From Hyphomicrobiales bacterium (GTDB lineage: Bacteria; Pseudomonadota; Alphaproteobacteria; Rhizobiales; JACESI01), in NCBI GenBank assembly GCA_039964305.1, contig JBDVXS010000103.1, forward strand, positions 281 to 64,280: DNA of 64,000 bases, read 5' to 3'. The notes below the pieces were generated by a model that did not search any database, was not told the origin of the DNA, and worked only from the letters and a program-made list of their open reading frames with translations. This document shows, piece by piece, positions 26,366-43,451 of this stretch (within the stretch, counting starts at the first letter, position 1; every line of letters starts with the position of its first letter). The position numbers and the translations under genes are program-made.

Positions 26366-26442
26366 GGGCGTGTAGCTCAGTTGGTTAGAGCCGACCGCTC
26401 ATAACGGTCTGGTCGGGGGTTCAAGTCCCTCCGCGCCTACCA
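26366..26442 (+). tRNA. tRNA with CAT anticodon, most likely tRNA-Ile2 (lysidine-modified); elongator Met is less likely
   Basis: Full cloverleaf: GGGCGTG acceptor, D-arm TAGCTCAGTTGGTTAGAGC, anticodon loop CTCATAA, GGTTCAAGTCC T-arm and encoded CCA. Lacks initiator features (C1:A72 mismatch, three consecutive G-C pairs in the anticodon stem). Confidence 0.93.
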
Positions 26443-26776: not shown

Positions 26777-27580
26777 CTATAATTCAGCGCCAAGCCGAAA
26801 CGAAATTTTCTTCGATATATCCTTGATGTTTTGAATAACCGTTGCTTCACCAATTTCTTCAATGGCATCTGTTGATAGGCTCACGGCAACGCCGGCAATT
26901 GGCTTGTTATTAGAGTTCAGTACAGTGACCCCATAACAGACCATACCCAGTTTGACCTGTTCACAATCAACTGAATGACCTTGAGCGCGAATGACGGCTA
27001 ATTCATCAATCAATGTATCCAGATCTTGAACGCTGTTGTCGGTAAGAGGTTTGGGGAAAGTCGTCCCGATGAGACGGCGCACGTCGCTTTCGGACATATA
27101 ACTCAAAAAAGATTTGCCAGTTGCAGTGAACACGGCAGGCAATCTCATCCCTATCCGAAAATCATAACCCACTGACAATTCCGAGTTCCGTGCCGCGATA
27201 TAAACGACTTCACTGCCCTCTAAGACGGACAACGTAATTGTAGCACCTGGTAAGCTACTACCTTCGTCCCAGATTGTGGCGAACTCTGTTGCGACGTCAG
27301 ATTCATAGGTGAACCGATTCGCCCATCGCATAATGTGAGGCCCTAATTGATAGGTCTGATCAGGCTTCTTTAGCAGCAGGTTTAGTTCAGTCAACGTTAC
27401 GCAAATTCCGTGGACGCTGCTCTTCGCAATTCCAATTTCCTCTGCAATTTCAGTGATATTGAGAGTTTTTTGTGACTTTGCAACAATGTCTAAAACGTTT
27501 GCGCCTTTAACAAGTGCTGGTACCAGTTTTGGTTTTTTATCTGGTTCCTGCACGCCCATTTTTCTCTTTATCCGATCCAC
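26777..27580 (-). CDS. attJ: IclR-family regulator, BlcR/AttJ-like (alternative start ATG 27559)
   Basis: VPALVKG...IAKSSVHG HTH, LGPHIMRWAN, EGSEVVYIAARNS and FRIGMRLPAVFTATGK closely parallel Agrobacterium BlcR as recalled. Divergent from an attM-like gene. Confidence 0.8.
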   Translation of the reverse strand: MDRIKRKMGVQEPDKKPKLVPALVKGANVLDIVAKSQKTLNITEIAEEIGIAKSSVHGICVTLTELNLLLKKPDQTYQLGPHIMRWANRFTYESDVATEFATIWDEGSSLPGATITLSVLEGSEVVYIAARNSELSVGYDFRIGMRLPAVFTATGKSFLSYMSESDVRRLIGTTFPKPLTDNSVQDLDTLIDELAVIRAQGHSVDCEQVKLGMVCYGVTVLNSNNKPIAGVAVSLSTDAIEEIGEATVIQNIKDISKKISFRLGAEL

Positions 27581-27644
27581 AAATTTTCTCTTTTTATGTC
27601 AGGTGATTGAAACTGGTTTTATCTCTATTTTTTAAAAACTGAGC

Positions 27645-27706
27645 TTGACTCTAACTCCCATAATGATCAGTATTCGACATATTGTAAAGCGTTCAATATA
27701 TGGAAC
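27645..27706 (+). promoter_or_regulatory. Putative operon promoter with IclR operator(s)
   Basis: TTGACT-N17-CAGTAT (27645-27673), followed by TTCGACATATTGTAA and the near-palindrome GTTCAATATATGGAAC (27691-27706). Confidence 0.55.
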
Positions 27707-27841
27707 AATTGTTTGGAGGAGAGCAGGCGTTGCAAACAAACAAAGATTTGAATCCTGCTTTGGTGGGCGGTAGCCTATGCTTAGTGGGTGCTGAGCTATT
27801 CAATTTCACTCTTCCAAGCGCAGCAGGAACTGGGACAGACG

Positions 27842-28225
27842 ATGACTGTTAGTGACTGGGCCGTAAAATTCAGTGAAGCCTCTGATCAAAATAAAACGAT
27901 CGCCGCCATGGCGCGTTATTTCACCTGCACCTACATGCTCGATATGGAGCACGAAAAGGTCATTGTCGAAATGATCGATGGTAAAGTCTACCGTATGAAC
28001 ATAACGCCCGGTGGCATGGATGCTTACGATTTTGCGCTACGCGCCAGTGCGCAAACATGGCGCGAATTTGCCCAGGCAGTTCCCAAGCCAATGTTCCATG
28101 GGATCTGGTCAGCGAGTTTTCGCAAAGATTTGACGATTGAAGGGAATACGCTTGTTCTTATGCAGAACCTGCGCAATTTCACGGTGCAGTTTGAACTGCT
28201 TCGCAAGGTAGGGGTGCCGGTATGA
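27842..28225 (+). CDS. Hypothetical protein, probable SCP2 (sterol carrier)-like fold
   Basis: 127 aa. The pattern YDFALRASAQTWREF...LTIEGNTLVLMQNL resembles SCP2-like domains. Confidence 0.55.
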   Translation: MTVSDWAVKFSEASDQNKTIAAMARYFTCTYMLDMEHEKVIVEMIDGKVYRMNITPGGMDAYDFALRASAQTWREFAQAVPKPMFHGIWSASFRKDLTIEGNTLVLMQNLRNFTVQFELLRKVGVPV

Positions 28226-28265
28226 CGTCAACCAATACTCTGATTAGTAAGGCAGTCTTAGCAAC

Positions 28266-29120
28266 ATGGTAAAACACTCACCAGTAACTGGACGGTATGT
28301 AACATTCGATGTCGATGGGTGTGAATACAAAGTTTTCTATCTTCAAAATGGTAGCGGAACACCGTTAGTCTGTCAGCACACTGCAGGTTGTCATAACCAT
28401 CAATGGCGAGACCTGCTCGAAGATGAAGAATTCACATCGCGCTACAACGTCATCGCCTATGACCTACCTCGACACGGCAAATCCGATCCGCCCCACAACA
28501 AGAAATGGTGGGAAGAGGAATATCGTTTAACAGCCGATCATTTTGTCAATTTCATTGTGAAGCTTTGTGACGCATTGGAACTCGACAATCCAATTTTCAT
28601 GGGTTCCTCGTTTGGGGGCAATGTAGCGCTTCAACTTGCGCTAAGACATCCAGATCGTTTTAGAGCTGTCATTCCAGTTGAAGCTGCCTCGCATGCTCCT
28701 GGTTTCTTCCTTGATCTATGGAGACATCCCCATGCAAACGCTGCACAAGTTTGTGCCAGTGGTGTTTGGGATCTCATGGCCCCTCAGAGTCCTGAAAAGG
28801 ATCGTTGGCTCACTTGGCATTATTATACCCAAGGGTCAGAGGCGTTTAAGGGCGACCTTTATTTTTACTCCGTTGACCACAACATCACGGATCAACTTTC
28901 CCAGATCGATACCAAAAGGTGTCCCGTCATTATGATGACAGGCACTTACGATTATTTGACGCCGCCTGAAGCGACTGAAGAAACGGCTCGGAATATTCCT
29001 GGTGGCATCTACATTGAAATGGAAGATATCGGGCACTTCCCGATGAGCGAAAACCATGCATTGTTTAGAGAGTATCTGCGCGAAGCCCTGAGAATTATTG
29101 AAGATCGCACTGATGCCTGA
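28266..29120 (+). CDS. Alpha/beta-fold hydrolase
   Basis: YDLPRHGKS, nucleophile elbow GSSFGG, acid (GTYD) and catalytic His in IGHFPMSEN. Confidence 0.9.
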   Translation: MVKHSPVTGRYVTFDVDGCEYKVFYLQNGSGTPLVCQHTAGCHNHQWRDLLEDEEFTSRYNVIAYDLPRHGKSDPPHNKKWWEEEYRLTADHFVNFIVKLCDALELDNPIFMGSSFGGNVALQLALRHPDRFRAVIPVEAASHAPGFFLDLWRHPHANAAQVCASGVWDLMAPQSPEKDRWLTWHYYTQGSEAFKGDLYFYSVDHNITDQLSQIDTKRCPVIMMTGTYDYLTPPEATEETARNIPGGIYIEMEDIGHFPMSENHALFREYLREALRIIEDRTDA

Positions 29121-29153
29121 TTACTTGGTAACTGAATATAATAAGAAAGCTTG

Positions 29154-30083
29154 ATGATGAAGATTCTTGAATTTAATGACCAAGGCCTACAAGTAGAGCG
29201 TGATTCAAACGCTGTGCGGCATATGGGTTCAAGTAGCCACCTAGCGCCTGCGCCTAATATCCGTGCTCGGACCCAACCGACATCAAACTCACCTTCTGAT
29301 ATTCAGTTGTTCATGTTCCAAACAGGAACACTTCGAACCAAAACTAAATATATCAAAATGAACCAAGGAGAGGAAGATTTCGAAATTCCAGTGCCGTGGT
29401 TCTTGATCAAGCACCCAAAGGGTAACGTTGTTATCGACGGTGGAAACGCTGTTGAGACTGCAATGGACAAACGCGGTCACTGGGGAGCTGTTGTTGATGC
29501 TTATGACCCAGTCATGAATGTCAAAGACAATTGCGTTGATCAATGTCGTTCAGTTGGTGTTGAGCCTGAAGATGTGAGCTATGTGATGCAATCGCATTTG
29601 CATCTCGATCATTCCGGTGCCATTGGCCGTTTTCGTAAGGCACAGCATATCGTTCAAAGAATTGAATATGATTATGCGTTTAACCCAGACTGGTTTTCTG
29701 CGGGTGCGTATATAAGAGCTGACTTTGATCGTCCGGGTCTTGATTGGAAGTTCTTGGGTGGTGAGTATACTGATAATTATGATCTCTATGGTGATGGCAC
29801 CATACGAATGATTTTCACGCCGGGTCATTCGCCTGGTCATCAGTCCTTTTTGATCACCCTTCCCAATACAGGGCCCGTGCTGCTTACGATTGATGCTGCC
29901 TACACCCTTGATCACTGGGAAGACAAAGCTCTTCCAGGTCTTGTATGTTCATCGGTAGATGCGGCTCGTTCTGTCGCAAAATTGCATAAAATTGCACAAG
30001 ATACCGGGGCTTTAGTCGTTACTGGCCATGATCCAGTGCATTGGAACACGTTTAGAAAAGCTCCACACAGTTTCTACGATTAA
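29154..30083 (+). CDS. attM: N-acyl-homoserine lactone/gamma-butyrolactone lactonase, AttM (BlcC) type (start uncertain)
   Basis: SHLHLDHSG (HxHxDH), TPGHSPGHQS, LTIDAAYTLDHW and TGHDP. N-terminal IKMNQG...EIPVPWFLI...VIDGGNA...RGHWG follows Agrobacterium AttM as recalled. Confidence 0.9.
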   Translation: MMKILEFNDQGLQVERDSNAVRHMGSSSHLAPAPNIRARTQPTSNSPSDIQLFMFQTGTLRTKTKYIKMNQGEEDFEIPVPWFLIKHPKGNVVIDGGNAVETAMDKRGHWGAVVDAYDPVMNVKDNCVDQCRSVGVEPEDVSYVMQSHLHLDHSGAIGRFRKAQHIVQRIEYDYAFNPDWFSAGAYIRADFDRPGLDWKFLGGEYTDNYDLYGDGTIRMIFTPGHSPGHQSFLITLPNTGPVLLTIDAAYTLDHWEDKALPGLVCSSVDAARSVAKLHKIAQDTGALVVTGHDPVHWNTFRKAPHSFYD

Positions 30084-30182
30084 GACCCTAAAGTGAGCCG
30101 GAGGAGCCTGGCTTGTGAAGCCTGTGCCGTAAATGGCGCAAGAAATACCAACCTAAAATTGACTAAAACTGAGGAGGAAGTA

Positions 30183-31352
30183 ATGAGAATTTTAAGAAAA
30201 TTAACGATGGCATTGAGCGGGTTAGCTCTGTGCGCGACTGGCGCGATAGCAGGAGGATTGGACGATATTGATCCAGAGGTGCGTGAGCGTCTTTATAATC
30301 CAGAAATGCTTGACCCAGCTCAGCCGATTGAAGCGAGCATTTACAAGGATTTTGTGGCTAAGAATCCGCCACCTTGGAAAATTGGATATGCAAGCTCATA
30401 TGCTGGCAACACTTGGCGTGCAGGTGCGATGTCGCAATTGCAAGACGTGATCATTCCTAAATGGAAAAAATTGGGCTTGATCTCTGAAGTTGTTGTGACC
30501 CAGTCAAACCTTAAAGATGCAACACAAATCCAACAAATGCGTCAACTTGTTGATCAAGGTGTCGATGCCGTCATCGTATGTTGCTCAAACCCAACTGCGC
30601 TCAACCAGACTGTTAAATATGCTTACGACAAGGGTGTTCCAACATTCTCACTCACTGGCTATTTGACATCAGAATATGCGGTTAATTCATCTGTAAACTA
30701 TCAGCTTGCAGGATTTGAAATCGGCAAATGGATGGCGAAGGAAATTGGCGGTAAAGGTAATGTGCTTGTTGTAGAGGGCATTCCTGGAACATCTGCTTCC
30801 GATAGTCAGGATCGCGGTGTTAAGGCTGGTCTGGCAACAGCAGAAGGCATTAATGTTGTTGGTTCAATCGCTGGCATGTGGACCGATCAGGTCGCTCAAG
30901 GTGAAGTGCAAAAATGGCTTTCAACACACCCAGGAAAACTAGACGGCGTTGTGGTTCAATCTGCCGCTGAAATGGGTGTATTGCGCGCGCTTGCTCAATC
31001 CGGTCGTGCTGACGTTCCAGTTGCAATCGGTGGTGAACTCGGTGCGTTGTGCCATTGGCGCAAAAACCCAGATTACATTTCTAGTGCGATCCAAACATGG
31101 CCGCCACAAGATGAGATGGAACTAATCTGGGACATCATGATGCGTACTTTGCAGGGTCAAGGTCCTAAAGTTCAATCTATCATGGTTGATCCTGTGACCG
31201 TAACTTTTGAAGATCTGAAAAATGTTATGGATGAAAGCTGCGATCCAAACACACCTAACTGGCTTCCAGTTGGTAAAGATCGTTGGGGTAGCTCTGCTTT
31301 CCTAGATGGCTTCTTCTACAAGCCTGCTGATCCAACAAAATACAAACGCTAA
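30183..31352 (+). CDS. ABC transporter periplasmic substrate-binding protein (sugar/CUT2 type)
   Basis: Signal peptide, QIQQMRQLVDQGVDAVIV and GKGNVLVVEGIPGTSAS. Strong GAGGAGG RBS. Confidence 0.9.
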   Translation: MRILRKLTMALSGLALCATGAIAGGLDDIDPEVRERLYNPEMLDPAQPIEASIYKDFVAKNPPPWKIGYASSYAGNTWRAGAMSQLQDVIIPKWKKLGLISEVVVTQSNLKDATQIQQMRQLVDQGVDAVIVCCSNPTALNQTVKYAYDKGVPTFSLTGYLTSEYAVNSSVNYQLAGFEIGKWMAKEIGGKGNVLVVEGIPGTSASDSQDRGVKAGLATAEGINVVGSIAGMWTDQVAQGEVQKWLSTHPGKLDGVVVQSAAEMGVLRALAQSGRADVPVAIGGELGALCHWRKNPDYISSAIQTWPPQDEMELIWDIMMRTLQGQGPKVQSIMVDPVTVTFEDLKNVMDESCDPNTPNWLPVGKDRWGSSAFLDGFFYKPADPTKYKR

Positions 31353-31363
31353 GTAAACGAAAA

Positions 31364-31390
31364 CCGGGCTGCCTGTGATGGGCAGTCCGG
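31364..31390 (+). other. Intercistronic stem-loop without a U-tract
   Basis: ccgggctgcct-gtgat-gggcagtccgg between the SBP and ATPase genes, a typical position for an mRNA-stabilising hairpin. Confidence 0.55.
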
Positions 31391-31408
31391 ATCGTATAAG
31401 GGTAAGTT

Positions 31409-33175
31409 TTGTCGCAATCTCAACCATCTCAGCCAGCTACATCCGTCGCGCAGAACACGATTTCTGTGGTCGATGTATACAAATTTTTTGGGCCGACACG
31501 CGCGCTCAATGGCTGTAGCTTCTCTGCACGGATGGGCGAAATACATGCCATCGTCGGCGGTAATGGTTGTGGTAAAAGCACAATGGCTAAGATCGTCTCT
31601 GGCGTATTACCCATTGATAAAGGACAAGTCTCCATCTTAGGAGAAACACCATCGACACCGGGTGAATCCCGAGCGATTGGTATCTCAACAGTTTACCAGG
31701 AAGTTCTTGTTGCCGACGAAAGTACAGTTGTCGATAACCTCTTCATGGGAACAGATGATCTGTTTTCTTCGACTTTACCATTCAATGAAAAAGTCCAGCG
31801 CGCTGCTAAAATGATGCGCGAATTGGCAGGGGAAGAAGTCGACCCCCATGCACTCGTAGGCACATTGCCACTTGGCATTAAACAATGGATTACTATCGGG
31901 CGAGGGCTCCTTCAAGTCCCCCGAATTCTCATTCTTGATGAATCATCAGCCGCTTTGGATTTTGATAGCACTGAACGGCTTTTTGATAAGATGCGAGAAC
32001 TAAGAGACGGTGGCACAACTGTTCTCATTGTGACGCACAGAATTGCAGAACTCATCCGCATATCAGACCGAGCGACCGTCCTGAGAGATGGCAAAGATGT
32101 TGGTGTTCTGGAGAAGGAAGAGATTACTGAAAAGAATTTGCTCGCTTTGATGACAGGCGAAGACCAAGACGACAATCATGCTGAATTTAAGGCCCCCATT
32201 CCAGTCGATGACAGCGTTGTCATGCAGGCTCACGGCCTTCAAATTTGGCCAGATGCTGAAAGCGTAGACTTCGAACTTCTAAAAGGTGAGATCGTAGGGA
32301 TCGCTGGTCTTGATGGCCAAGGACAAGATGAATTTGTGCGGGTTCTGGCTGGTGTGCAACTGGCAGAAAAAGGGCTTGTTTATTCATCCGACAATGCGGG
32401 GGTGTTTCATCCTATCCAGTCTCTTCGCGAAGCTGTGAAAGCTAAAATTGCCTATGTTTCTGGAGATCGGAAACGGGAAGGTATTTTCGCTTCACTAAGC
32501 ATCTTTGAAAACATGTCTATGCCACTTTATCGCGAGAAAACACGTGGTGGTTTTTTCGGGTTCATTGATTGGGTAAGCCTGAAAACAATTTTCACACGAG
32601 AGACTGAAAACTTACTTATTAAGTTTGGCCTTGCTGATGACAAGATCACGTCTCTTTCGGGTGGTAATCAGCAGAAAGTGCTTATTGGTCGTGGCTTCGC
32701 CATGCGACCTGATATTATCGTCTTGAATGACCCCGCGCGGGGCATCGATGTGGGGGCGAAGACTGAACTCTACAAACACCTAAGGACGTTTGCCGAATCT
32801 GGAAAATCTGTGATTTATTTATCTTCCGAATTGGAAGAATTTATCGGCTTCGCCACCCGCGTTATCGTTTTTCGAAACGGCAGTCCCTTTGATGCCTTTG
32901 CGGGGGAACAGGTTGAACAAAAACGTATTCTTGAAGCCATGTTCGGTCAAACAGATCGTCTTGGATTAAAGGGGCTTTCTTCTGAAGCCCTACAGCCGAA
33001 CTCGAGTGAAAACCCTCCTTTGCAGCCTCAAGATATTGAGAGCACAGACGTATCAAATCCAGATCAAGACAACGTTGTTTCATTTGCTACAGATGATACT
33101 GCAGCCACTAAACGACTAGACATCAAGATTGTCGAATTCGATGCTCACAAAAACAAAAAACGGTCAGCGCTATGA
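31409..33175 (+). CDS. Sugar-type ABC transporter ATP-binding protein (two fused NBDs)
   Basis: GGNGCGKS Walker A, LILDE, GDRKREG, LSGGNQQKV and DPARGIDVGAK. Confidence 0.92.
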   Translation: MSQSQPSQPATSVAQNTISVVDVYKFFGPTRALNGCSFSARMGEIHAIVGGNGCGKSTMAKIVSGVLPIDKGQVSILGETPSTPGESRAIGISTVYQEVLVADESTVVDNLFMGTDDLFSSTLPFNEKVQRAAKMMRELAGEEVDPHALVGTLPLGIKQWITIGRGLLQVPRILILDESSAALDFDSTERLFDKMRELRDGGTTVLIVTHRIAELIRISDRATVLRDGKDVGVLEKEEITEKNLLALMTGEDQDDNHAEFKAPIPVDDSVVMQAHGLQIWPDAESVDFELLKGEIVGIAGLDGQGQDEFVRVLAGVQLAEKGLVYSSDNAGVFHPIQSLREAVKAKIAYVSGDRKREGIFASLSIFENMSMPLYREKTRGGFFGFIDWVSLKTIFTRETENLLIKFGLADDKITSLSGGNQQKVLIGRGFAMRPDIIVLNDPARGIDVGAKTELYKHLRTFAESGKSVIYLSSELEEFIGFATRVIVFRNGSPFDAFAGEQVEQKRILEAMFGQTDRLGLKGLSSEALQPNSSENPPLQPQDIESTDVSNPDQDNVVSFATDDTAATKRLDIKIVEFDAHKNKKRSAL

Positions 33176-34584
33176 CCGATGTGACAGCAAGCACAATTCC
33201 AACTCAAGCTGAAAATGATGAAGTTAGCTCTGGCAGCGGAACAACGCCTTATTTGTTGATGCCAATTACCGTTCTGTTTGTGCTTTTGATCATTGCAGTC
33301 ATCAGATCTCCATCTCTCATGACAAGCTCAGGAATTGGCGCTGCAATTATTGTTTCAGCCCCTCTCATTCTTGCAACCTATGCTCTTATGACAAGCGTAA
33401 CGGCAGGCCGGGGCACTGTGGATTTAGCCATTGGCCCTCTAATCGGCTTCATCAATGTTTCTGTTATCCAGCTTACTGCCGCCGAGGTGATAGGGTCTCC
33501 AATCTCTGTTTTCATTTTTGCGATTGGCCTTGGCATTGCTTATCAAGTCTTGATGGCTGCGATTGTGATTTATGTACGGGTCCAACCAATAATCGTATCG
33601 CTCAGTGGCTTTCTAGCGCTATCAGGCATAAACCTTGTCATTCTGCCCCGACCTGGAGGCCTTGCACCTGAATGGATGCAAAGCTGGGGTGCAGGCATTG
33701 ATATTATTTCGCCTGTTTTGGTGATCCTTGTGGTGGCAACACTTGCATGGTTGCTTTTCACACAAACAGCTTTCTACACTCATTTGAGACTGATGGGATC
33801 AGATGAGAGGGCGGCCTATACCAGTGGCGTTCCAATCACGACCGTTCGTTTTGGCGCCCATGCGATTGCAGGCGTATTCGCCGGATTGTCAGCCATTACG
33901 TATACGGCTTTGATTAGCTCAGGAGATCCCAGCCAAGGAACGACCTACACACTCATTGCTGTAACAGCACTCGTACTAGGCGGCACTTCGCTCGCGGGCG
34001 GACGCGGCACGGTTATGGGGTCTTTATTTGGTGCGCTTAATCTATATTTGATTACCTATGTGCTTGCGACATTCAACTTTGGCGCTGTTCAAAGCTTTGT
34101 AACTGACCTTGCTTACGGCACAATCTTGGTTGTCTCTTTGCTGCTAACAATCGCTCTGCCGTTCATCCAACGGCACATCCGAAACTTCTCACCGTTACTC
34201 TATTTTGTTGTGCTGTCAGTTGTTGTCTTCGGTGTTATTTTGCATACGACATTTGATTACACGGCATTAGAGGCAGCGACAGATACGGCGAAGCAAGCAC
34301 TCCCTGCAATCAATTTTGCAGCGCCCCTTGAAGTGGTGCAACTGAGTGACAGTGACATTGAGTATAGCTCATTTGCACAACCGCTCATCTATGCAGCAAT
34401 TCTAATTATTGCGCTGCCAATTTTGTTGCGGGTGATTTTTTCGAACTCAGATTTTCGCAACATTGGACTTCTGGTCGCAATCTTCGTCACATCCATGCTG
34501 TTGATGTCAGGTTATTTTTTGACCCAAAATTCTGCTTCCTCCCAAGCACCATCCCTCCCAAGCTCCAATTCGGGAGCAAGCTAA
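33172..34584 (+). CDS. ABC transporter permease (RbsC-like) with C-terminal membrane extension
   Basis: VDLAIG, GSDERAAYTSGV and LVLGGTSLAGGRG. ATGA overlap with the ATPase gene. Confidence 0.88.
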   Translation: MTDVTASTIPTQAENDEVSSGSGTTPYLLMPITVLFVLLIIAVIRSPSLMTSSGIGAAIIVSAPLILATYALMTSVTAGRGTVDLAIGPLIGFINVSVIQLTAAEVIGSPISVFIFAIGLGIAYQVLMAAIVIYVRVQPIIVSLSGFLALSGINLVILPRPGGLAPEWMQSWGAGIDIISPVLVILVVATLAWLLFTQTAFYTHLRLMGSDERAAYTSGVPITTVRFGAHAIAGVFAGLSAITYTALISSGDPSQGTTYTLIAVTALVLGGTSLAGGRGTVMGSLFGALNLYLITYVLATFNFGAVQSFVTDLAYGTILVVSLLLTIALPFIQRHIRNFSPLLYFVVLSVVVFGVILHTTFDYTALEAATDTAKQALPAINFAAPLEVVQLSDSDIEYSSFAQPLIYAAILIIALPILLRVIFSNSDFRNIGLLVAIFVTSMLLMSGYFLTQNSASSQAPSLPSSNSGAS

Positions 34585-35964
34585 TTGAGTAATTCTGCAT
34601 CAACACATAAAACGGGCACTTTGCTAACACGCCTTATTGGTTTGGTTTTGGCACTAGGCATAACGGCGATCGGTGTGGTGGTTGGCTTGGTTCAAGGACA
34701 GCCTATCCAGCAAGTCATTTTGTTTGCTGTCGCAACCCTTGCTGGTTCGGCTTGGGCTTGGCAGTTTTTTGTCAAACAGTTTGATAGTCATGGCGACGAA
34801 AATCAGGAAACTGAGGGGCCAGGTGAACTTTACCAAGCATGGTTGAAGTATCGCTTAGGGTTTTTTGGATTTTTGATCTTAGCATTGTTATTTGTGACGC
34901 TTTCTCTGACCGTGGAAGGTTTCTTCAATATTTGGAACGTGATTTCAGCTCTCATCTTGTTGCTGATCATTGTTTTGACGATGACGGTTGGGAAATTTGT
35001 TTCTGAAAACAAAAGCGCATTTATCGGCTTGATGGTGTTGATCGGTCTGTTTTCAATTGGAGCGATGAACATCGAAGGGTTTTCATCAACTAACAATATC
35101 AAATCGATGTTGCTCTTTGCGTCATTTCTTGGCTTGGCATGTATCGGTCAAACACTTGTATCGCTGGTTGGTGGTCTCGATCTTTCAATCCCATTCGTTA
35201 TTGGTTCAGCCAATGTGGGGATGTTGTATCTCATCAGCCTCGGCGTTCCACCGTGGTTAGCACTCGTAATCACGTTGTTCGTTGGAATGCTTATTGGCTT
35301 GATAAATGGTTTTCTTAGCTTCCGCCTTCAGGGCCAAGCGCTCATTATGACGCTGGGAACTGGGTTCGCAGTTTCTGGGGGCATCCAAATAATCACGTCG
35401 ATTGGAACGGCCTATGGCGGCAATGTTTTTGCTACAGTTCCAAGCTGGCTTAGCAACTTAGCAGCCTTAAATGGATCATTTTTTGGAATTCCCATTCCAC
35501 CAGTAATCGCCATTTGGATCATCATCGCGGTAGTGCTGATCGTTGGTATGCGGCATACCGTTTTTGGCCGCTATCTATATGCACTCGGTGTAAACCGTAC
35601 GTCTGCAAAACGCGTGTCGATTTCAGAACGCATCTATTGGGTTTCCGTCTACACGCTCAGCGGATTTTTCTCAGCGCTAACGGGCATCTTTCTCCTTGGT
35701 TGGAGCGGCGGCGGTTTCATTGGCGTTGGGGATAGTTATTTGTTTATGACCCTTGCTGCCGTGGTTGTTGGTGGGACGTCCTTATTAGGTGGCATCGGTG
35801 GATACGGCTTCACTGTGATTGGCGTTTTGGTTCTTCAAGTCCTGACATCATTTTTGGTCGGCATCGGACTGAACCACGAATGGCAGCAATTTATCTTCGG
35901 ATTACTAATCCTCCCAATGGTCGCACTTTATGCGCGTTCCCCGCACATCAGAACCCAAATTTAG
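34585..35964 (+). CDS. ABC transporter permease (RbsC-like) with N-terminal membrane extension
   Basis: GQTLVSLVGGLDLS, FGRYLYALGVN and AAVVVGGTSLLGGIG. Confidence 0.88.
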   Translation: MSNSASTHKTGTLLTRLIGLVLALGITAIGVVVGLVQGQPIQQVILFAVATLAGSAWAWQFFVKQFDSHGDENQETEGPGELYQAWLKYRLGFFGFLILALLFVTLSLTVEGFFNIWNVISALILLLIIVLTMTVGKFVSENKSAFIGLMVLIGLFSIGAMNIEGFSSTNNIKSMLLFASFLGLACIGQTLVSLVGGLDLSIPFVIGSANVGMLYLISLGVPPWLALVITLFVGMLIGLINGFLSFRLQGQALIMTLGTGFAVSGGIQIITSIGTAYGGNVFATVPSWLSNLAALNGSFFGIPIPPVIAIWIIIAVVLIVGMRHTVFGRYLYALGVNRTSAKRVSISERIYWVSVYTLSGFFSALTGIFLLGWSGGGFIGVGDSYLFMTLAAVVVGGTSLLGGIGGYGFTVIGVLVLQVLTSFLVGIGLNHEWQQFIFGLLILPMVALYARSPHIRTQI

Positions 35965-36016
35965 AAAGCGACAAGCAATTGACACAAGAACAAGCCAAAT
36001 CAAGACAGGGGAAAAA

Positions 36017-36724
36017 ATGACCCATCCGGTTATGCAAACAATAGATCTTACAGGTGCGAGTTACTCTGCAGCCCTGTTGGGAATGGTAGCAACAACTGTA
36101 TTGCTTCTCATCGGCTCCGCTTGGGTGCGTGGTGGTTGGAAATTACCGGTCACTCTATGCGGTCTGGCAACTCTTGTTGGGGTGTTCGCACTCTATGAAT
36201 CGAAAGCTGTTTGGCTTTCAAGTTCACAGGTTCCACTGGTCTATCACTATGTAGGCTGGATCATATCCATGCCCCTACAGGTTATCGCACTCTTCTTCTT
36301 TGCCCGTCAGATGGGGCCAGTATCTTCTGCCCTGTTTTGGCGCTTATTGGTTGTCACTGTTTTGATGGTGCTGTTTCGTTATTTGGGAGAAGCTGGGTTC
36401 GTTCACGCAACGTTGGCATTCCTTATCGGCATTGTTTTCTGGCTATACATTCTCGGCGAGATATTTTTCGGACAAATGGAAGAGGCTGTAACAAAAAGCC
36501 TCAACGCGCCAGTACAGCGTGGGTATTTCTGGCTGCGGTTGATTGTGACTGTTGGTTGGGCCGTTTACCCATTGGCCAATTTCATCATCAGTTTTAGTGG
36601 TCATGTTGATACTGGCGGCATGAGCGTCGCTTACAACCTGACAGAATTTTTAAACAGAATAACGTTCGGGATCATCATTCTCTCAACGGCTGTTTTAGCC
36701 TCGAAAGGATCATCCGATGAATAA
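36017..36724 (+). CDS. Proteorhodopsin-family (type 1) opsin lacking the retinal-binding lysine
   Basis: 235 aa with seven hydrophobic helices co-linear with proteorhodopsin (PR): WKLPVTLCGL, PLVYHYVGWIISMPLQ (PR: PTVFRYIDWLLTVPL), YLGEAG, GWAVYP and YNLTEFLNRITFG (PR: YNLADFVNKILFG). Confidence 0.88.
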   Translation: MTHPVMQTIDLTGASYSAALLGMVATTVLLLIGSAWVRGGWKLPVTLCGLATLVGVFALYESKAVWLSSSQVPLVYHYVGWIISMPLQVIALFFFARQMGPVSSALFWRLLVVTVLMVLFRYLGEAGFVHATLAFLIGIVFWLYILGEIFFGQMEEAVTKSLNAPVQRGYFWLRLIVTVGWAVYPLANFIISFSGHVDTGGMSVAYNLTEFLNRITFGIIILSTAVLASKGSSDE

Positions 36725-36784
36725 TCTAATTCTTCTCAACCTCGAGCAAATCAATACACTGCCCTCTAATATGGAGTTACCAAA

Positions 36785-38482
36785 ATGAACGGTGCCAATA
36801 TCATTGCAATTATTATTCTGGCGGCGATCGTTATTGCGGTTCTTGCCTACCTTCTTCACTGGCTGTACCGCCACTCAACAAAGGATGTATCCTTTGTGCG
36901 AACCGGTTTTCTTGGTGAAAAAATCGTCATGGGTGGTGGCGCGTTAGTCCTACCAATCGTCCACGACCTTACCGAAGTAAACATGAATACACTGCGTCTG
37001 GAAGTAACAAGATCGCGGCAGAAATCATTGATTACTAAGGATCGGATGCGTATCGAGTTGGAAGTTGAATTCTACGTGCGTGTGATACCGACAATTGAAG
37101 CTGTCTCAACAGCCGCACGTACCCTTGGCAATAGAACAACAAATCCAGAAAGCTTGCGCGATCTCATTCAAGGCCGCTTTGTCGATGCTATGGGCGCCGT
37201 TGCTGCGTCGATGGCTATGGAGGAAATACACGAGAACCGGTCTGCCTTTATCAAGAAAATTAAAGAGGAAGTGGCCGACAACCTCACGCTCAATGGGCTT
37301 GAACTAGAAACCATCTCTCTAACAACATTGGATCAAGCTGATATTTCGCTTTTCAATCCTTCAAATGCGTTTGACGCGGAAGGTCTTACACGTCTGACAG
37401 AAGAGATCGAGAAGCGTAAGAAAAAGCGTAATGACATTGAACAAGATACGATGATCGCGGTTCGCAAGAAGAACCTTGAAGCTGAGAAGATGGCTTTGGA
37501 TATCGAACGGGAAAGTGAATACGCGAAATTGGCCGAAGATAGCGAAGTGGCCATTCGTAGAGCTGAGCAAAAAGCTGAAGTAGAGCTCATGAACGCGGCA
37601 AAAGAACGCGAAATTGAAATTGCCCGTTTGAAGGAACGCGAAGAGGTGGAAACCAGCCGCATCCAAATGGAGCAATCACTTGAAACAATCGAAATCAAGC
37701 GACAGGAAAATCTGGCGCTAGAGGAACAAGCACGCGAAATTGCAATTTCAGAAAAATCTAAAAAACGTTCCCTTGCACAATCTGAAGCGGAAAAAGCCCG
37801 TGGTAAAATGCTGGAAGAGAGCGAGAAGGCGCAAACAGTGCGTGATACCGAAATTGCAAATCGACGCAAACAGGTTGAGCTGATCGAAGCTGCAAAAGAA
37901 GCCGAACGCGGTGCAATTGTTACCAAGGTGAATGCTGAGGCTGAAAAAACCGCAGCCAAAGATCTGGCTGAAGCGGATGGAATTGCCGTTAAAGCTCTCA
38001 AAGAACGCCTTGCAATTGAAGCCGACGGGAAACGGGCGCTCAATGAAGCTGAAAACCTGCGCACGGACGCTAGTCGCAAATCTGCTCTCCATCAAAAATT
38101 GGTCGAGAACCTTCCTGAAATCATCCGCGAGAGCGTCAAACCAATGGAGAATATCGATGAAATCAAAATTCTTCATGTTGAAGGCCTTCCAGGTTTAGCA
38201 GCAGGCAATTCAGATGGCTCTTCAGCTGGTGATGGGCAAGGCAAATCAGGTGATGGAAACCTTGCCGATCAAGTCGTGAATTCCGCATTGCGATATCGCT
38301 CGCAGGCTCCCTTTGTCGATACATTGCTAGGAGAGATCGGAATGAGCGGAGAAAACGTGCATCGTATGGAAGGTCTGCAAGACTTGTCTAAGATCGTTTA
38401 CACCGAGCCTGGCGCTGCTGAAACATCCAGTAAGCCCAAAGCTGCTTCGCCCAAAACAGCGGCAACAAAGCCCAAAAAATAA
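36785..38482 (+). CDS. Flotillin/SPFH-family protein (YqiK-like)
   Basis: N-terminal TM, FVRTG...GGALVLPIVH, LITKDRMR SPFH core, FNPSNAFDAEGLT, long AEA-rich coiled coil, and C-terminal LPEIIRESVKPMENIDEIKIL and SALRYRSQAP. Confidence 0.92.
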   Translation: MNGANIIAIIILAAIVIAVLAYLLHWLYRHSTKDVSFVRTGFLGEKIVMGGGALVLPIVHDLTEVNMNTLRLEVTRSRQKSLITKDRMRIELEVEFYVRVIPTIEAVSTAARTLGNRTTNPESLRDLIQGRFVDAMGAVAASMAMEEIHENRSAFIKKIKEEVADNLTLNGLELETISLTTLDQADISLFNPSNAFDAEGLTRLTEEIEKRKKKRNDIEQDTMIAVRKKNLEAEKMALDIERESEYAKLAEDSEVAIRRAEQKAEVELMNAAKEREIEIARLKEREEVETSRIQMEQSLETIEIKRQENLALEEQAREIAISEKSKKRSLAQSEAEKARGKMLEESEKAQTVRDTEIANRRKQVELIEAAKEAERGAIVTKVNAEAEKTAAKDLAEADGIAVKALKERLAIEADGKRALNEAENLRTDASRKSALHQKLVENLPEIIRESVKPMENIDEIKILHVEGLPGLAAGNSDGSSAGDGQGKSGDGNLADQVVNSALRYRSQAPFVDTLLGEIGMSGENVHRMEGLQDLSKIVYTEPGAAETSSKPKAASPKTAATKPKK

Positions 38483-38547
38483 GAACGCAGTCAGTGATAG
38501 CTTTGGCGCTATCACGCCAGTCTTGATAGAATTTAAAGGAGGCTTTC

Positions 38548-38973
38548 TTGAGCCTTACAACAAAGATTGAACGAGAAGTTGTCGTGATTAGCAGCTGGAC
38601 TGTGTTCGGAATTTTAGGACTTGGCTTCCTTCTTGAAGGTGGTGTCCGTGATAACTTCTTGATCGGTGTTTTTGGAATAGGTGTCTTGGTGGTGGGCTTC
38701 TTGTGCCACCTTGTCGCGAATTATGTTTTTAAGCAGAGCTTTTCCAAGGGTGAAGTGGCGCTGGGTTTAGGCGTGTTTGTTACGTCAACAATTGTATTCA
38801 TTGTTGGTTGGCTTGCGGGTTCGCTCTCTGAAACAAGTTTTTTCATTGGGTTGACCGCACTCTCAATTATCGTTGCTGGGTTCATTGTTAATCTGACCAC
38901 CCGGTATGGGGTTAGTGGTGCGTTTCATAAATTCGACGTCTCTGCAAAGTCTCATTCGAGGCATCGAAAATGA
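38548..38973 (+). CDS. Small integral membrane protein (about 4 TM)
   Basis: AAGGAGG RBS before TTG, four hydrophobic segments and ATGA overlap with the symporter gene. Confidence 0.75.
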   Translation: MSLTTKIEREVVVISSWTVFGILGLGFLLEGGVRDNFLIGVFGIGVLVVGFLCHLVANYVFKQSFSKGEVALGLGVFVTSTIVFIVGWLAGSLSETSFFIGLTALSIIVAGFIVNLTTRYGVSGAFHKFDVSAKSHSRHRK

Positions 38974-40925
38974 GCCTGCTTGATCCTGTAATATGGCTAT
39001 TTCTTCTCTTGTTGTTTTATGGATTGATTTCTCTTTATTGGGCCCGATCAGCGTCCCTTTACAATCAATCAGAAGCTGATTTTTTCACAGCAGGCGGATC
39101 TCTTGCACCTTGGATGATGGCGCTTGGCCTTACAGGGGCCAGTATTTCTGCATGGATCATGCTGGGCTTTCCAAAGGCCATCGCCAATCAAGGTCTAGGT
39201 TTTGCAGTTCTTGCCCTTGCCGGAGTCGTCATCCCCCTGACAGGCGTGCTCTTCTTAAAGCCGCAATGGGCCATCGCCAAACGTCATGGGTATTCTAGTC
39301 AGGGTGAGATGTTGAATGCCTATTTCGGCGGCAAAGCAATCGGCATTCTTTCTGCAGGGGTTGCGTTGTTGATTGCTATCGGGTTCTCAGGAATCCAACT
39401 TCGTGCTGTCTCTCAATTGCTGGCTAACCTCTCTGGCAGTGCAGATCTATTTCCTCAATATGTCTTGGGAATAGCGTTTCTGGTTGCGGCCTACCTTATC
39501 ATCGGTGGGATGAGAGCTGTTGGATACCTCGGCGTATTGCAGACCGTTTTAATTGGCCTCACTCTAGCTGGATTAGGGCTTTTTGTTCTCATCACGCAGG
39601 GCGGGTTAGAACCAATCAGCCAAGCGTTAGGTGTTCTTGCTCAAAATCCAGATTCAATTTCTAAGGGATTGTTTGAGATTGCTGGGGTCATCCAATTTAC
39701 TGCCGGACATGGGGTTGACGATTCAATAACAAGTCAGTGGACCGCGATGATGATATTCAGCACCGCGCTTGCATTGATGGGTATCCAAGCAAGTCCAATG
39801 ATCACCCAATTGGTCATTGCTACACGCAATTCAAAAGGAATTGCAGCTGGACAGACATGGGTATTTGCAGGCTTTTTTGGCGCTCTTTTGGTCGGAGCCG
39901 TTGTTTTAATTGGTGTCACGGGAATTGGAAAAGGCGGAAATCCAATTGCGGACCTACTGGCAATCCTCTCAGAAAGTTCTCCTTGGTTCATGGCCATTGG
40001 TGCACTGGGATTTCTCGCCGCATTGCAACTCGTGATGGGTTTGAGTGTTCTCACCGCTGCAAACGCTGTGATCAAAGATGTCTACAAACCGTTTTTCCAT
40101 AAAGGCCTTTCAAGCAAGGACGAGTTGTTATTTGCCAGAGTCCTAATGGGACTTCTTATTCTCGCTGCAGCCTTGTTGGCTCTCCTAGGGCCATTTGTCC
40201 TGTCAGCGCTCAGTTCTGTAGCCCTACCAGCAGCCTTCCAATTATGGCCAGCCTTACTCGGTTTATGTTGGGTTAAATTTATAACAAGACAAGCTGTCTT
40301 AGCGGGCGCGGTGCTCGGACTGTTTGCTGTTTTTGTTACGGATACAGTCGGCATTCGCATGTTAGAATTCGTAGGCCTTGATTTGCCTTGGGGGCGGTGG
40401 CCTTGGACTATCCATTCTGCTGGATGGGGTATCTTCTTCAATGTGTTGGCTGTTCTTGTAATCTCCGCCATCACACAAGGGCGAGGGCATGCAAATATTG
40501 CTCCAGATATACGCAGCTTTTTGCGAACTTACATGAAACCTAAAGTTCAAAGCCGTGCACTAAAGCCTACTGCTTGGTCTGCGGTTCTTGCTTGGTTTTT
40601 CTTGGCTATTGGTCCCGGTGCTGTTCTTGGTAACACCGCATTCGGCAAGCCTTCTGAAGGCTTTGAAGTATGGATGATTGGCGTTCCATCTATTTGGGCG
40701 TGGACAATTCTATTTTGGGTTTTGGGTGTGTTTCTGGTTTGGTTCCTTTCATACAAAATGGAACTTGCATCAGAATCTGACGTTCAATTTACCCCAATCG
40801 AAGCCCTTCCCACGGCCACTATTCGAGACACTAAAATTCAAAAAGAAGAAGTGTTGCGTTTGGCATGGACGATTTCTGCAATCGCAACAATCATAACATT
40901 AACAACCTGGACATTTGGCTCGTGA
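38970..40925 (+). CDS. Sodium:solute symporter (SSS) family transporter
   Basis: DFFTAGGSL...ASISAWIMLGFP, YLIIGGMRAVGYLGVLQ and more than 13 TM segments. Confidence 0.82.
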   Translation: MSLLDPVIWLFLLLLFYGLISLYWARSASLYNQSEADFFTAGGSLAPWMMALGLTGASISAWIMLGFPKAIANQGLGFAVLALAGVVIPLTGVLFLKPQWAIAKRHGYSSQGEMLNAYFGGKAIGILSAGVALLIAIGFSGIQLRAVSQLLANLSGSADLFPQYVLGIAFLVAAYLIIGGMRAVGYLGVLQTVLIGLTLAGLGLFVLITQGGLEPISQALGVLAQNPDSISKGLFEIAGVIQFTAGHGVDDSITSQWTAMMIFSTALALMGIQASPMITQLVIATRNSKGIAAGQTWVFAGFFGALLVGAVVLIGVTGIGKGGNPIADLLAILSESSPWFMAIGALGFLAALQLVMGLSVLTAANAVIKDVYKPFFHKGLSSKDELLFARVLMGLLILAAALLALLGPFVLSALSSVALPAAFQLWPALLGLCWVKFITRQAVLAGAVLGLFAVFVTDTVGIRMLEFVGLDLPWGRWPWTIHSAGWGIFFNVLAVLVISAITQGRGHANIAPDIRSFLRTYMKPKVQSRALKPTAWSAVLAWFFLAIGPGAVLGNTAFGKPSEGFEVWMIGVPSIWAWTILFWVLGVFLVWFLSYKMELASESDVQFTPIEALPTATIRDTKIQKEEVLRLAWTISAIATIITLTTWTFGS

Positions 40926-40942
40926 GCCAAGAAAGAGACCCT

Positions 40943-42100
40943 ATGCCCCCCTTTATTTTCAATACAACAGCCAGCGTTAGATTTGGCGCAGGTTTGATGT
41001 CGCAGCTTGGCGAAATGGTAAAGGCCAGTATTGGGACACGTATTTTGCTGGTGACAGACCCTGGCATGATGACAACTGGTATTGTCGACAAAGCTTTGGA
41101 CATATTAAAAGCCGCTGGTGTTGATGTGGCGTTGTTCAAAGATGTTGAATCTGATCCCTCAGAGCAAGTCGTGCTCGCATGCGCCCAAGCGGCCATCGAC
41201 CATGGATCACAGGGGGTCGTTGGACTTGGTGGTGGATCATCCTTGGATGTTGCGAAACTGGCGGCCTTGCTTGCAACGGGCAATGAAAAGCTTACGGATG
41301 CTTATGGTGTCGGCAATGCAAAGGGACCACGCTTGCCGTTAATTCTTGTGCCAACAACCTCTGGTACAGGCTCGGAAGTGACGCCTATTTCGATTGTTAC
41401 CACGGGCACCAATGAAAAAATGGGTGTCGTCTCACCCGTGATTATTCCAGATATAGCCTTGCTTGACCCAGAACTAACTTTGGGACTGCCATCACACATC
41501 ACAGCGGCAACAGGCATTGATGCCATGGTACATGCGATTGAGGCCTACGCCTCTGCTAGTGCCAACAATAATCCAATCTCTCGCATGTTGGCAGAAAAAG
41601 CACTTCAGTTGATGGGGCCTTCGCTTTTGGCGGTTGTTAATGATGGATCGGCTATTGAAAGCCGTTCCGCTATGTTGTTGGGATCAATGTTGGCAGGCCA
41701 AGCGTTTGCCAACTCACCGGTCGCGGCCGTTCATGCATTAGCCTATCCACTTGGTGGCCATTTCCATATTCCGCATGGGCTTTCTAATGCTCTCGTGTTG
41801 CCCCACGTTTTGCGCTTCAATTGCGTAGTCGCTCCGCAACCTTATGCGGAATTGGCACCGTTTGCTTTTCCTGAATTGGCAAAATTAGAGGGCCAAGAAC
41901 GCGCAAGCGCCTTTTGCGATTCTTTGGCTGACCTCTCGCAAAAATGTGGCCTTCAGCAAAGTCTCAAAGAAATGGGCATCCCAAGAGAAACCCTTCCCAA
42001 GCTTGCAAGCGATGCGATGAACCAAACGCGTCTTCTCGTAAACAATCCGCGTGAAGTTAAACTAGCCGACGCATTGGCAATCTATGAAGCTGCCTACTAA
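40943..42100 (+). CDS. attL: Iron-containing alcohol dehydrogenase, AttL/BlcB (4-hydroxybutyrate dehydrogenase)-like
   Basis: GLGGGSSLD, PTTSGTGSEVT, GIDAMVHAIE, AFANSPVAAVHALAYPLGGHFHIPHGLSN and QTRLLVNNP. Confidence 0.82.
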   Translation: MPPFIFNTTASVRFGAGLMSQLGEMVKASIGTRILLVTDPGMMTTGIVDKALDILKAAGVDVALFKDVESDPSEQVVLACAQAAIDHGSQGVVGLGGGSSLDVAKLAALLATGNEKLTDAYGVGNAKGPRLPLILVPTTSGTGSEVTPISIVTTGTNEKMGVVSPVIIPDIALLDPELTLGLPSHITAATGIDAMVHAIEAYASASANNNPISRMLAEKALQLMGPSLLAVVNDGSAIESRSAMLLGSMLAGQAFANSPVAAVHALAYPLGGHFHIPHGLSNALVLPHVLRFNCVVAPQPYAELAPFAFPELAKLEGQERASAFCDSLADLSQKCGLQQSLKEMGIPRETLPKLASDAMNQTRLLVNNPREVKLADALAIYEAAY

Positions 42101-42113
42101 TTCAGGCCCTATG

Positions 42114-42140
42114 AAAGAGCGTTAAATGCCGCTCTTTTTT
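42114..42140 (+). terminator. Rho-independent terminator closing the accessory operon
   Basis: aaagagcg-ttaaatgc-cgctcttttttt. Confidence 0.8.
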
Positions 42141-42360: not shown

Positions 42361-43212
42361 ATGGTTGAACGAATGGTGAGGCCACGGCGTAGTTTTATTT
42401 TTGCACCGGGCCTAAAGCCTGCCATGTTCCCAAAAGCACTGGCGAGTGGTGCGGATATCGTTTGCGTGGAGCTTGAAGATGGTGTTGCACCAAAAGACAA
42501 GGCAACCGCCCGCGCCAATGTGATGGCAATGTTTGCTGAGCCGCAAGCGGATGATGGGGTGGAGCGGATTGTTCGCATTAATTGTGTTAAGGATGAGTTT
42601 GGCAAAGCGGATCTTGAAGCGATTATAAAGACCGACACACCGCCGCCCGCCTTAATGCTACCTAAAGTAAAGTCGCCAGATGAAGTGGTGGCTGTTGATC
42701 AAATGCTCACCGAGCGCGGGCATGATTGCCGTCTACAAATCATCATAGAGACCAACGAGGGGCTGGAAGCTGCTGTTGCTATTGCCAATTCAAGTAAGCG
42801 GATTGATGCGCTTTTGTTTGGTGGGGTCGATATGGCAGCGGATCTTCGGTGCGCTCAAACATGGGATGCTTTGTTATACGCCCGCGCGCGCACCGTTCAT
42901 GCTGCGGCCTCTGCCGGTATTGATGTGATCGATGTGCCGCATCTGGATCTTGATGATCGTGAGGGCATGATCGAGGCGGCAAAGCGGGCAAAGGAACTTG
43001 GGTTTTCTGGTAAAGGCTCAATCCACCCCAAGCAGATCGCAGATCTCAACGCTGTCTTCACGCCGAGTGAAGCTGAAATCGCACGTGCAAAGCAGATCGT
43101 TCAAGCCTTTGATGGGGCTGATACGGCGCTGGTTGTGATTGATGGAAAGCTAATTGAAAAGCCCGTTTTGCGCGAAATGCGCAGAGTTTTGGCTATTTCC
43201 GAAAAATTTTGA
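42361..43212 (+). CDS. CitE/HpcH-family CoA-ester lyase
   Basis: RRSFIFAPG, ELEDGVAP, VRIN, LPKV, IIET, GKGSIHPKQI and VFTPSEAEI. Confidence 0.9.
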   Translation: MVERMVRPRRSFIFAPGLKPAMFPKALASGADIVCVELEDGVAPKDKATARANVMAMFAEPQADDGVERIVRINCVKDEFGKADLEAIIKTDTPPPALMLPKVKSPDEVVAVDQMLTERGHDCRLQIIIETNEGLEAAVAIANSSKRIDALLFGGVDMAADLRCAQTWDALLYARARTVHAAASAGIDVIDVPHLDLDDREGMIEAAKRAKELGFSGKGSIHPKQIADLNAVFTPSEAEIARAKQIVQAFDGADTALVVIDGKLIEKPVLREMRRVLAISEKF

Positions 43213-43451
43213 CGCTGACAGAAATTGTTCTTGGTGACAGTTCTCGATGGTGCGTTGATATGAGGTTTTCAAGAGGTACTTGATATAAACTATTGAACTT
43301 AAGAATAAATCTAGGATGTAGTCAGTATTTTTTAAATACTGGCAAGTTTGACGCCTAATAGTTGGTATTGAGTTTTTCAATGAATTAGGGGTTTGTTAGC
43401 CATCTTGATGCTATTTTCTTGGGAGCTGGGTTTTTTGTGGGTGTATTGAGT

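Follow-up and report, generated by a model that had tools for sequence, protein, structure and literature searches.

Flotillin-associated rhodopsins (FARs) and their gene clusters were described from Pelagibacterales, HIMB59 and Pseudothioglobus by Haro-Moreno et al. (2023, PMC10308929), where arginine was named among the substitutions of the retinal-binding lysine. All marine FAR genomes studied there had a proteorhodopsin, and a proteorhodopsin paralogue in the freshwater lysine-less members lay outside what that study could test. Its Table S2 (SAR11, HIMB59) lists FAR, flotillin, SCP2, hydrolase, AttM-type lactonase, Fe-containing alcohol dehydrogenase (Fe-ADH), sodium:solute symporter (SSS) and four ABC genes, and a DMFase-like gene was present in all three published marine clusters. 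In the preprint on PsFAR (10.1101/2025.04.29.651185; PDB 9R21), no retinal was bound and the pocket was filled by side chains, and FAR producers were stated to be all uncultivated; the function of FAR was given as an open question in both sources. The other closely related system is blcR-blcABC (attJ-attKLM) of Agrobacterium fabrum C58, the pathway of which is taken here from the account in PMC3907764: BlcC opens the acyl homoserine lactone OC8HSL and supports growth on gamma-butyrolactone (GBL), not on OC8HSL.

Here we analysed a stretch of 64,000 nucleotides (the window) from a Hyphomicrobiales bacterium (assembly GCA_039964305.1, contig JBDVXS010000103.1, positions 281 to 64,280), in which a co-oriented gene unit encodes a CUT2-type ABC importer, a lysine-less FAR, a flotillin and an SSS family protein together with relatives of BlcC and BlcB, opposite the gene of a BlcR-like IclR repressor. 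Direct observations are the gene content, the missing lysine, the lack of a second rhodopsin, the conserved operator and the co-occurrence of FAR with permease extensions and a peptide tag. The initial annotation had described a lactone operon as the base, with an added opsin module; this framing is inverted, because ABC importer, FAR, flotillin and SSS form the constant core, to which the blc genes are added as an exchangeable module. With moderate confidence, the locus is read as a system that couples import to catabolism: a butyrolactone-type compound would be degraded to succinic semialdehyde, a BlcR-type repressor would control the genes, and FAR and flotillin would assist the importer independently of light; the substrate and the protein contacts in this reading are putative.

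The combination had also been called undescribed, which fails because counterparts of 11 of the 13 genes of the locus (matched by eye) are already given in Table S2 of PMC10308929 for SAR11 and HIMB59, IclR and a four-transmembrane (4-TM) protein being those not listed; the window locus also has the ABC importer and the SSS, the core shared by the three published taxa. Compared with the published FAR cluster, the new elements are the lack of a proteorhodopsin partner, BlcR-type control, the permease extensions and the tag, on none of which anything was found in the literature, subscription journals aside.

Identity of the opsin and rhodopsin content of the carriers

Arg214 occupies the Schiff-base lysine position of the window opsin, in line with the missing retinal lysine noted in the initial annotation, and the replacements are K213 to R214, E120 to R121 and D79 to G80. 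PsFAR was the best PDB match both by sequence and by fold (TM 0.93). In a tree of 50 hand-chosen rows, 42 flotillin-cluster rows were placed on one side of a branch with support of 95/89; the window opsin lay inside this FAR clade and within its lysine-less subclade (support 100/100). Because it falls in a separate clade within the proteorhodopsin family, is encoded next to a flotillin gene (60 nt upstream) and lacks the lysine, the opsin is assigned on sequence grounds to the FARs.

No type-1 rhodopsin (PF01036) other than FAR was present in 28/29 carrier genomes (G050, a duplicate of G013, did not enter the count separately), with a single match in the window genome (98.55% complete), in 13/13 relative genomes and in 14/15 FAR genomes of the order sample. 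The exception, G312 (C1:2302745-2315308), encodes FAR, two more rhodopsins and Blh. Blh was found in 2/29 carriers versus 5/7 pump-rhodopsin control genomes, and heliorhodopsin in 0/29 carriers by a search without a responding control. The window genome thereby lacks the proton-pumping proteorhodopsin paralogue that accompanies FAR in the published marine type. The light independence of the opsin proposed initially is supported by its status as sole rhodopsin, the rarity of Blh and the retinal-free PsFAR.

Cultured carriers included Hoeflea sp. IMCC20628, Martelella sp. AD-3, M. lutilitoris, Pararhizobium gei ZFJT.2T, Shinella sp. PSBB067 and Lichenifustis flavocetrariae, among which the genome-wide rhodopsin search covered Lichenifustis flavocetrariae only. 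The operon was intact on plasmids of cultured strains. Plasmid CP070278.1, labelled Dysgonomonadaceae, differed in length by no more than 5 bases from the plasmid of Martelella lutilitoris and had the same match scores; it is probably that plasmid under another label. A PsFAR-like gene that retains the lysine was found in L061 (G054:C1:779650-799649), L101 and L102, in a 5.3-Mb genome without any other type-1 rhodopsin.

Association of FAR with the importer

A rhodopsin match was obtained in 33 of the 401 genomes sampled from the order; four weak matches were left out and 30 loci were examined, 17 of which carried permease 2 upstream and flotillin downstream of the rhodopsin. Orthologues of the periplasmic binding protein (SBP) with at least 62% identity occurred in exactly these 17 FAR genomes among the 401, and the next tier (48-56%) occurred in 8 genomes, all without FAR. 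The FAR gene stood directly before the flotillin gene in 17/17 FAR genomes of the order and in 54/54 loci with at least 3 kb downstream in the metagenome set (the best 80 of 395 relatives), and FAR and flotillin lay 3' of permease 2 in 54/54 such metagenome loci as well.

Gene contents were counted in the 32 long metagenome loci. The four ABC genes, FAR, flotillin and SSS were each present in 32/32, followed by AttM-like lactonase (26, some only 28-34% alike), SCP2 with hydrolase (26), ADH (24), 4-TM protein (23), IclR (22), succinic semialdehyde dehydrogenase (SSADH; 13) and DMFase-like protein (7). Permease 1 measured 447-737 aa in 31/31 FAR loci versus 322-329 aa in five FAR-less sisters. 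Permease 2 had an N-terminal extension in 32/32 FAR loci, and homology began only at residue 136-140 in comparison with 5/5 FAR-less sisters.

The BlcR-type module

The IclR protein was 40% identical to C58 BlcR, and its best PDB match was BlcR itself (3mq0, E 2e-53). Residues corresponding to BlcR Y133, F147, T158, D210 and C220, which we take to form the succinic semialdehyde pocket, were conserved in 45/45 IclR homologues. Upstream of the SCP2 gene, a -35 box precedes a pair of 16-bp palindromes separated by 3 bp. The same 16+3+16 layout and -35 offset were found in the C58 blcR-blcA gap, presumably the site of BlcR binding there. With an operator matrix built from nine relatives, the window site ranked first of 6,647,848 genome positions at 27.6 bits, the next independent site reaching 19.3; the C58 site scored 21.1 bits, above every other site in the window genome. 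In held-out loci the best operator site lay between IclR and SCP2 in 30/31.

The lactonase scored 439.9 bits with NF045700 (cut-off 390), carried the HLHLDH motif and was 64% identical to C58 BlcC; Fe-ADH was 53% identical to BlcB. An SSADH (55-60% to BlcA; TIGR01780 over cut-off) lay beside the operon in 17/23 close loci. The link to blc drawn in the initial annotation is thus borne out by repressor, enzymes and operator. Two checks named there beforehand gave the following: linkage of the opsin-flotillin pair to attM/blcR recurs in relatives, and no second operator for independent internal control was found inside the operon, the core palindrome occurring once in the whole window.

The shared peptide tag

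A K-I-V-E-F-D-type peptide is common to the ATPase tail (IKIVEFD) and the N-terminus of the lactonase (MKILEFND). The reading frame of the lactonase begins some 50 codons ahead of the catalytic core, and RefSeq starts the attM genes of relatives further downstream. With a pattern derived from the same proteins in which it was then counted, the tag was present in 44/48 AttM entries and 58/82 ATPases of 101 FAR loci (duplicates included), and beyond these in a hydantoinase B and a distant-lactonase frame, one each; it was present in none of the other cluster genes, in 0/21 non-FAR AttM and in 0/5 FAR-less ATPases. The window genome held 7 matches in 1.13 million residues, 2 of them at this locus.

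The four tagless AttM entries represent two genomes counted twice, both of which also lack the ATPase tag and, genome-wide, SCP2, hydrolase and IclR. The corresponding loci (L001/L064, L002/L065) are truncated operons starting at attM, with SCP2, hydrolase, IclR, operator and both tags gone, and a transposase fragment lies upstream of that in L064. When a slightly looser pattern was used and listed duplicates were dropped (11 short loci unclassified), the ATPase tag occurred in 47/48 loci with a close SCP2, 0/9 with a divergent SCP2, where the ATPase is fused to a YbhB-like domain, and 0/7 full loci free of SCP2. As the tag tracks the close SCP2, the SCP2/hydrolase pair is pointed to as its candidate dock.

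Other forms of the ATPase tail were noticed. In the divergent clade (L057-L060, L062, L063, L018, L170, L188) the ATPase is fused in frame to a domain that we take from its motifs to be YbhB/PEBP-like, with no tag. Four tag copies in one ATPase tail (L149, L160, L164, L166, L172) suggest multivalent docking. L061, L101 and L102 carry hydantoinase A/B, DMFase-like and PxpA genes; three proteins there bear tag-like peptides, namely the ATPase, hydantoinase B and a small protein. Mimicry of the C-terminal strand of flotillin by the tag was considered and is unsupported: the pattern was found in 0/101 flotillins, and the tag tracks SCP2, not flotillin.

SCP2/hydrolase units outside the operon

The hydrolase was 73% and 61% identical to proteins of Rhodococcus and Peribacillus, respectively, encoded in SCP2-hydrolase-aldehyde dehydrogenase units. 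On plasmids of these genera (L107:13373-17451, L108:7531-12516, L218:4367-8402) the units also include a regulator, and the aldehyde dehydrogenase is annotated as SSADH in 2/3 records. Two FAR-less sister importers sit between hydrolase and SSADH genes. With SSADH or aldehyde dehydrogenase neighbouring the operon, the SCP2/hydrolase units and the sister importers, succinic semialdehyde is the likely end product. The SCP2 protein is a likely partner of the hydrolase, and it weakly matched the N-terminus of longer rhizobial hydrolases (E about 1e-4). The stand-alone Rhodococcus and Peribacillus units offer an easy system for finding the hydrolase substrate.

A probable SCP2-hydrolase fusion was seen on plasmids of bean-nodulating rhizobia (L105:15196-16428, L106:13858-15087), among genes of an LLM monooxygenase, a flavin reductase and the sister ABC importer. 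Identity of the sister-importer region with the teu bean-exudate genes was considered as a candidate and not established, nor was a link of these fusions to the teu locus.

Proposed mechanism and alternative explanations

In the proposed mechanism, IclR would bind the tandem operator over the promoter until succinic semialdehyde or a closely related metabolite releases it. Uptake of the substrate, or of its ring-opened acid, would fall to the CUT2 importer and the SSS symporter, and the ATPase tail and the lactonase N-terminus might dock through the common tag on an SCP2/hydrolase complex; with such docking, hydrolysis would take place at the importer and a leaky neutral ring would be trapped as a charged acid. 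From knowledge of the families, the lactonase is expected to yield 4-hydroxybutyrate, Fe-ADH succinic semialdehyde and SSADH succinate, the SSADH being supplied putatively by the operon in most relatives and by contig C85 in the window genome. FAR and flotillin may organise the importer, perhaps via its extra helices. Since the carriers mostly have no other rhodopsin and possess an importer and predicted lactone enzymes, FARs likely serve nutrient uptake, not light capture. Modelling of FAR in complex with permease 2, with the extension of permease 1 or with the flotillin N-terminus gave a score of 0.00 with the controls unfolded too, and is evidence neither way.

Several points weigh against this mechanism. 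AttM was found in 22/401 genomes, 9 with and 13 without FAR, and is missing from 8/17 FAR genomes. In the divergent FAR clade no IclR, AttM, ADH or operator was found within 20 kb, so that the lactone job cannot be the general job of FAR; G054 has hydantoinase, DMFase-like and PxpA genes. The SBP matches only distant sugar-binding proteins, and no substrate compound was named by the PDB matches of hydrolase and SBP or by NCBIfam scans of the neighbours. ADH does not reach the cut-off for 4-hydroxybutyrate dehydrogenase, and contig C139 encodes a 67% paralogue; the window locus has no SSADH, and the 59% BlcA homologue on contig C85 lacks a top-ranking operator. Such palindromes and pocket residues may be common among IclR proteins. 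The metagenome set is biased toward extended permeases, and the extensions and FAR may trace to one gain, in which case their co-occurrence does not amount to many independent events. No importer lies alongside the Rhodococcus SCP2/hydrolase units, which speaks against the pair as dock for the tag. For 13 of the 29 carrier genomes no completeness value is available.

A broader version of the proposed mechanism is conceivable, though doubtful: FAR clusters in general would be membrane-anchored import-and-trap machines, in which a retinal-free rhodopsin and a flotillin cage grip the extra helices of the importer and the tag gathers hydrolases via SCP2/hydrolase. The tagged ring-opening enzyme would then be interchangeable, a lactonase here and a hydantoinase elsewhere. 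If true, this would be a rhodopsin turned transporter subunit, in abundant marine bacteria and cultured Hyphomicrobiales, and the common tag would be an unusual tethering of catabolic enzymes to an ABC importer.

Alternatively, FAR and flotillin might be co-regulated with the operon, make no contact with the importer and protect or order the membrane against a membrane-active lactone. The poor sequence conservation of the permease extensions would suit this, as would the effect of flotillins on membrane organisation mentioned in PMC10308929. The match between FAR and the importer subfamily is nevertheless exact in both directions, and extensions are found only in FAR-linked permeases while the enzymes vary, which makes this explanation unlikely.

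Binding of a small carboxylate (4-hydroxybutyrate, succinic semialdehyde or an acyl product) in the former retinal pocket, with gating of the importer or the symporter, is a still weaker candidate. In its favour, among 120 close homologues Arg121 was present in 120, Arg214 in 111 and glycine in place of the counter-ion aspartate in 119, and a retinal-free proteoopsin binds decanoate through the same lysine position according to PMC11322631. Against it, position 214 varies among K, R, L, Q and T across FARs with the same importer, the operon has no transducer gene, and the pocket described in the PsFAR preprint is already occupied.

We rate as equally improbable that N-acyl homoserine lactones (AHLs) are the true substrates and that the operon scavenges or quenches quorum signals, with SCP2 carrying the acyl chain. 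The AttM family score over cut-off, the SCP2 fold and the opening of OC8HSL by BlcC fit this view. ADH and SSADH are, by general knowledge, unnecessary for AHL breakdown, yet they travel with the operon and accompany SCP2/hydrolase elsewhere too, and the growth described for BlcC in PMC3907764 was on GBL.

The published idea of FAR as modulator of a proteorhodopsin pump of the same cell, acting within flotillin rafts in dim light, which would agree with the marine genomes of PMC10308929 and with G312, is very improbable here and already contradicted as a general rule, since 28/29 carriers are without a second type-1 rhodopsin, including the genome of the lysine-retaining FAR of G054, and carriers have been obtained from oil-polluted soil as well as from a plant-associated source.

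The variant found here removes the proteorhodopsin partner, supplies a candidate inducer and an operator, and occurs in cultured strains, so that FAR function becomes testable in culture.

Organization of the locus and neighbouring features

The coordinates are collected in Table 1, in which the 12 genes at 27842-42100 are listed in their order. The initial annotation had counted 11 co-oriented genes and a divergent IclR gene; the genes it named were all present with intact frames, and the count was corrected to 12. Pfam and NCBIfam identified the hydrolase, the lactonase, the SBP, the ATPase, both permeases, the opsin (Bac_rhodopsin), the flotillin, the SSS and Fe-ADH. Intergenic gaps ranged from -4 to 99 nt, in line with the gaps of about 100 nt or less noted before, and the two ATGA overlaps were located at ATPase/permease 1 and 4-TM/SSS; the gap between permease 1 and permease 2 was 0 nt. 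The single terminator noted at the operon end was recovered as a hairpin with a U-run; it was absent from the list of a separate pattern scan for terminators. The scans for sigma-70 promoters and terminators were not above shuffled sequence (15 sites versus 22.1 expected and 26 versus 19.8, respectively).

Table 1. Features of the FAR-importer locus and its borders (positions in the window)
Feature	Position	Strand	Remarks
tRNA-Met	26366..26442	+	adjoins locus; possible integration site
BlcR-like IclR repressor	26777..27580	-	Pfam IclR_C + HTH; start uncertain by few codons
Predicted promoter and tandem operator	27645..27706	+	-35 TTGACT at 27645; IR1 27672-27687, 3 bp, IR2 27691-27706 (GTTC-N8-GAAC)
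SCP2-fold protein, 127 aa	27842..28225	+	AlphaFold/Foldseek fold; likely hydrolase partner, candidate tag dock
Alpha/beta hydrolase	28266..29120	+	Pfam; predicted Ser115, Asp229, His257
AttM/BlcC-family lactonase	29157..30083	+	NF045700; ~50-aa N-terminal extension opening with tag
CUT2-type SBP	30183..31352	+	Pfam
Stable hairpin 3' of SBP gene	31364-31390		predicted
ABC ATPase	31409..33175	+	Pfam; variable C-terminal tail ending in tag (33122-33142)
ABC permease 1	33172..34584	+	Pfam; C-terminal extension of ~3 predicted helices
ABC permease 2	34585..35964	+	Pfam; ~135-aa N-terminal membrane extension
Lysine-less FAR	36017..36724	+	Arg214 for Lys, Gly80 for counter-ion Asp, Arg121 at ring site
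Flotillin	36785..38482	+	Pfam SPFH + Flot domains
4-TM protein	38548..38973	+	no known family; gene coupled to symporter gene
SSS family protein	38970..40925	+	Pfam
Fe-ADH, BlcB-like	40943..42100	+	predicted 4-hydroxybutyrate dehydrogenase; below every equivalog cut-off
Predicted intrinsic terminator	42113..42140	+	hairpin + U-run, -11 kcal/mol, z -2.1

The SCP2-like protein had no Pfam match, and its fold was assigned by AlphaFold and Foldseek (TM 0.73 to 2cx7). The 4-TM protein matched neither Pfam nor NCBIfam and its best Atlas clusters were unnamed; the sole named Atlas match, DUF6773 (0.88), is a lead only. The same gene order was found in 9/13 relative genome loci, the other four comprising two without IclR, SCP2 and hydrolase, one rearranged and one ended by a contig edge; the recurrence indicates that the arrangement is not due to chance. 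A chimeric assembly was ruled out, as one contig of a related strain spans the whole stretch and the order recurs in relatives. The locus looks accessory, with the tRNA-Met gene alongside and FAR in only 1/5 other genomes of the genus. In three RNA runs 0 reads fell on the locus, which gives no test of expression.

Past the terminator, a CitE/RipC-like lyase is encoded at 42361-43212; it is not conserved beside the operon in close relatives, and a distant CitE/RipC-like lyase (27-30%) lies near two divergent-clade loci. The gene at 43419-53192 encodes an acidic repeat protein of 3257 aa that ends in RTX-like glycine repeats, by eye probably a secreted adhesin. A second flotillin (951 aa, 48% alike) was found on contig C37 of G000 (C37:11-6889), followed downstream by two apparent polyketide-cyclase-like proteins and molybdo-hydroxylase subunits (labels by eye).

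Comparison with known systems

Unlike the published FAR clusters, the window locus has no oxoprolinase-like gene. A DMFase-like gene was not found there either, and PF20254 matched nothing in the genome by a search without a responding positive control. The freshwater FAR contexts in Fig. 3B and Table S4 of PMC10308929 could show more of the arrangement described here.

The FAR-less sister CUT2 importers of rhizobial plasmids resemble that of the window (SBP 48-56%, permeases 52-61%) and often lie beside the same hydrolase family and SSADH, but have no FAR, flotillin, permease extensions or ATPase tag. With C58 blcR-blcABC the locus shares the divergent IclR gene, the lactonase, Fe-ADH, the tandem-operator layout and, in most relatives, SSADH. 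It differs by ten extra genes including two importers, by the absence of blcA from the window locus and by the tagged N-terminal extension, missing from BlcC, of its predicted lactonase. With the published FAR cluster, as tabulated in PMC10308929, it shares FAR right before flotillin, the fold of FAR and the 11 counterpart genes including the lactonase. The window genes form one co-oriented unit, and its BlcR-like IclR, its operator and the gene of its 4-TM protein have no entry in Table S2; unlike the marine FAR genomes reported there, the window genome has neither proteorhodopsin nor Blh; and unlike the uncultured hosts of the published FARs, its order includes cultured carriers.

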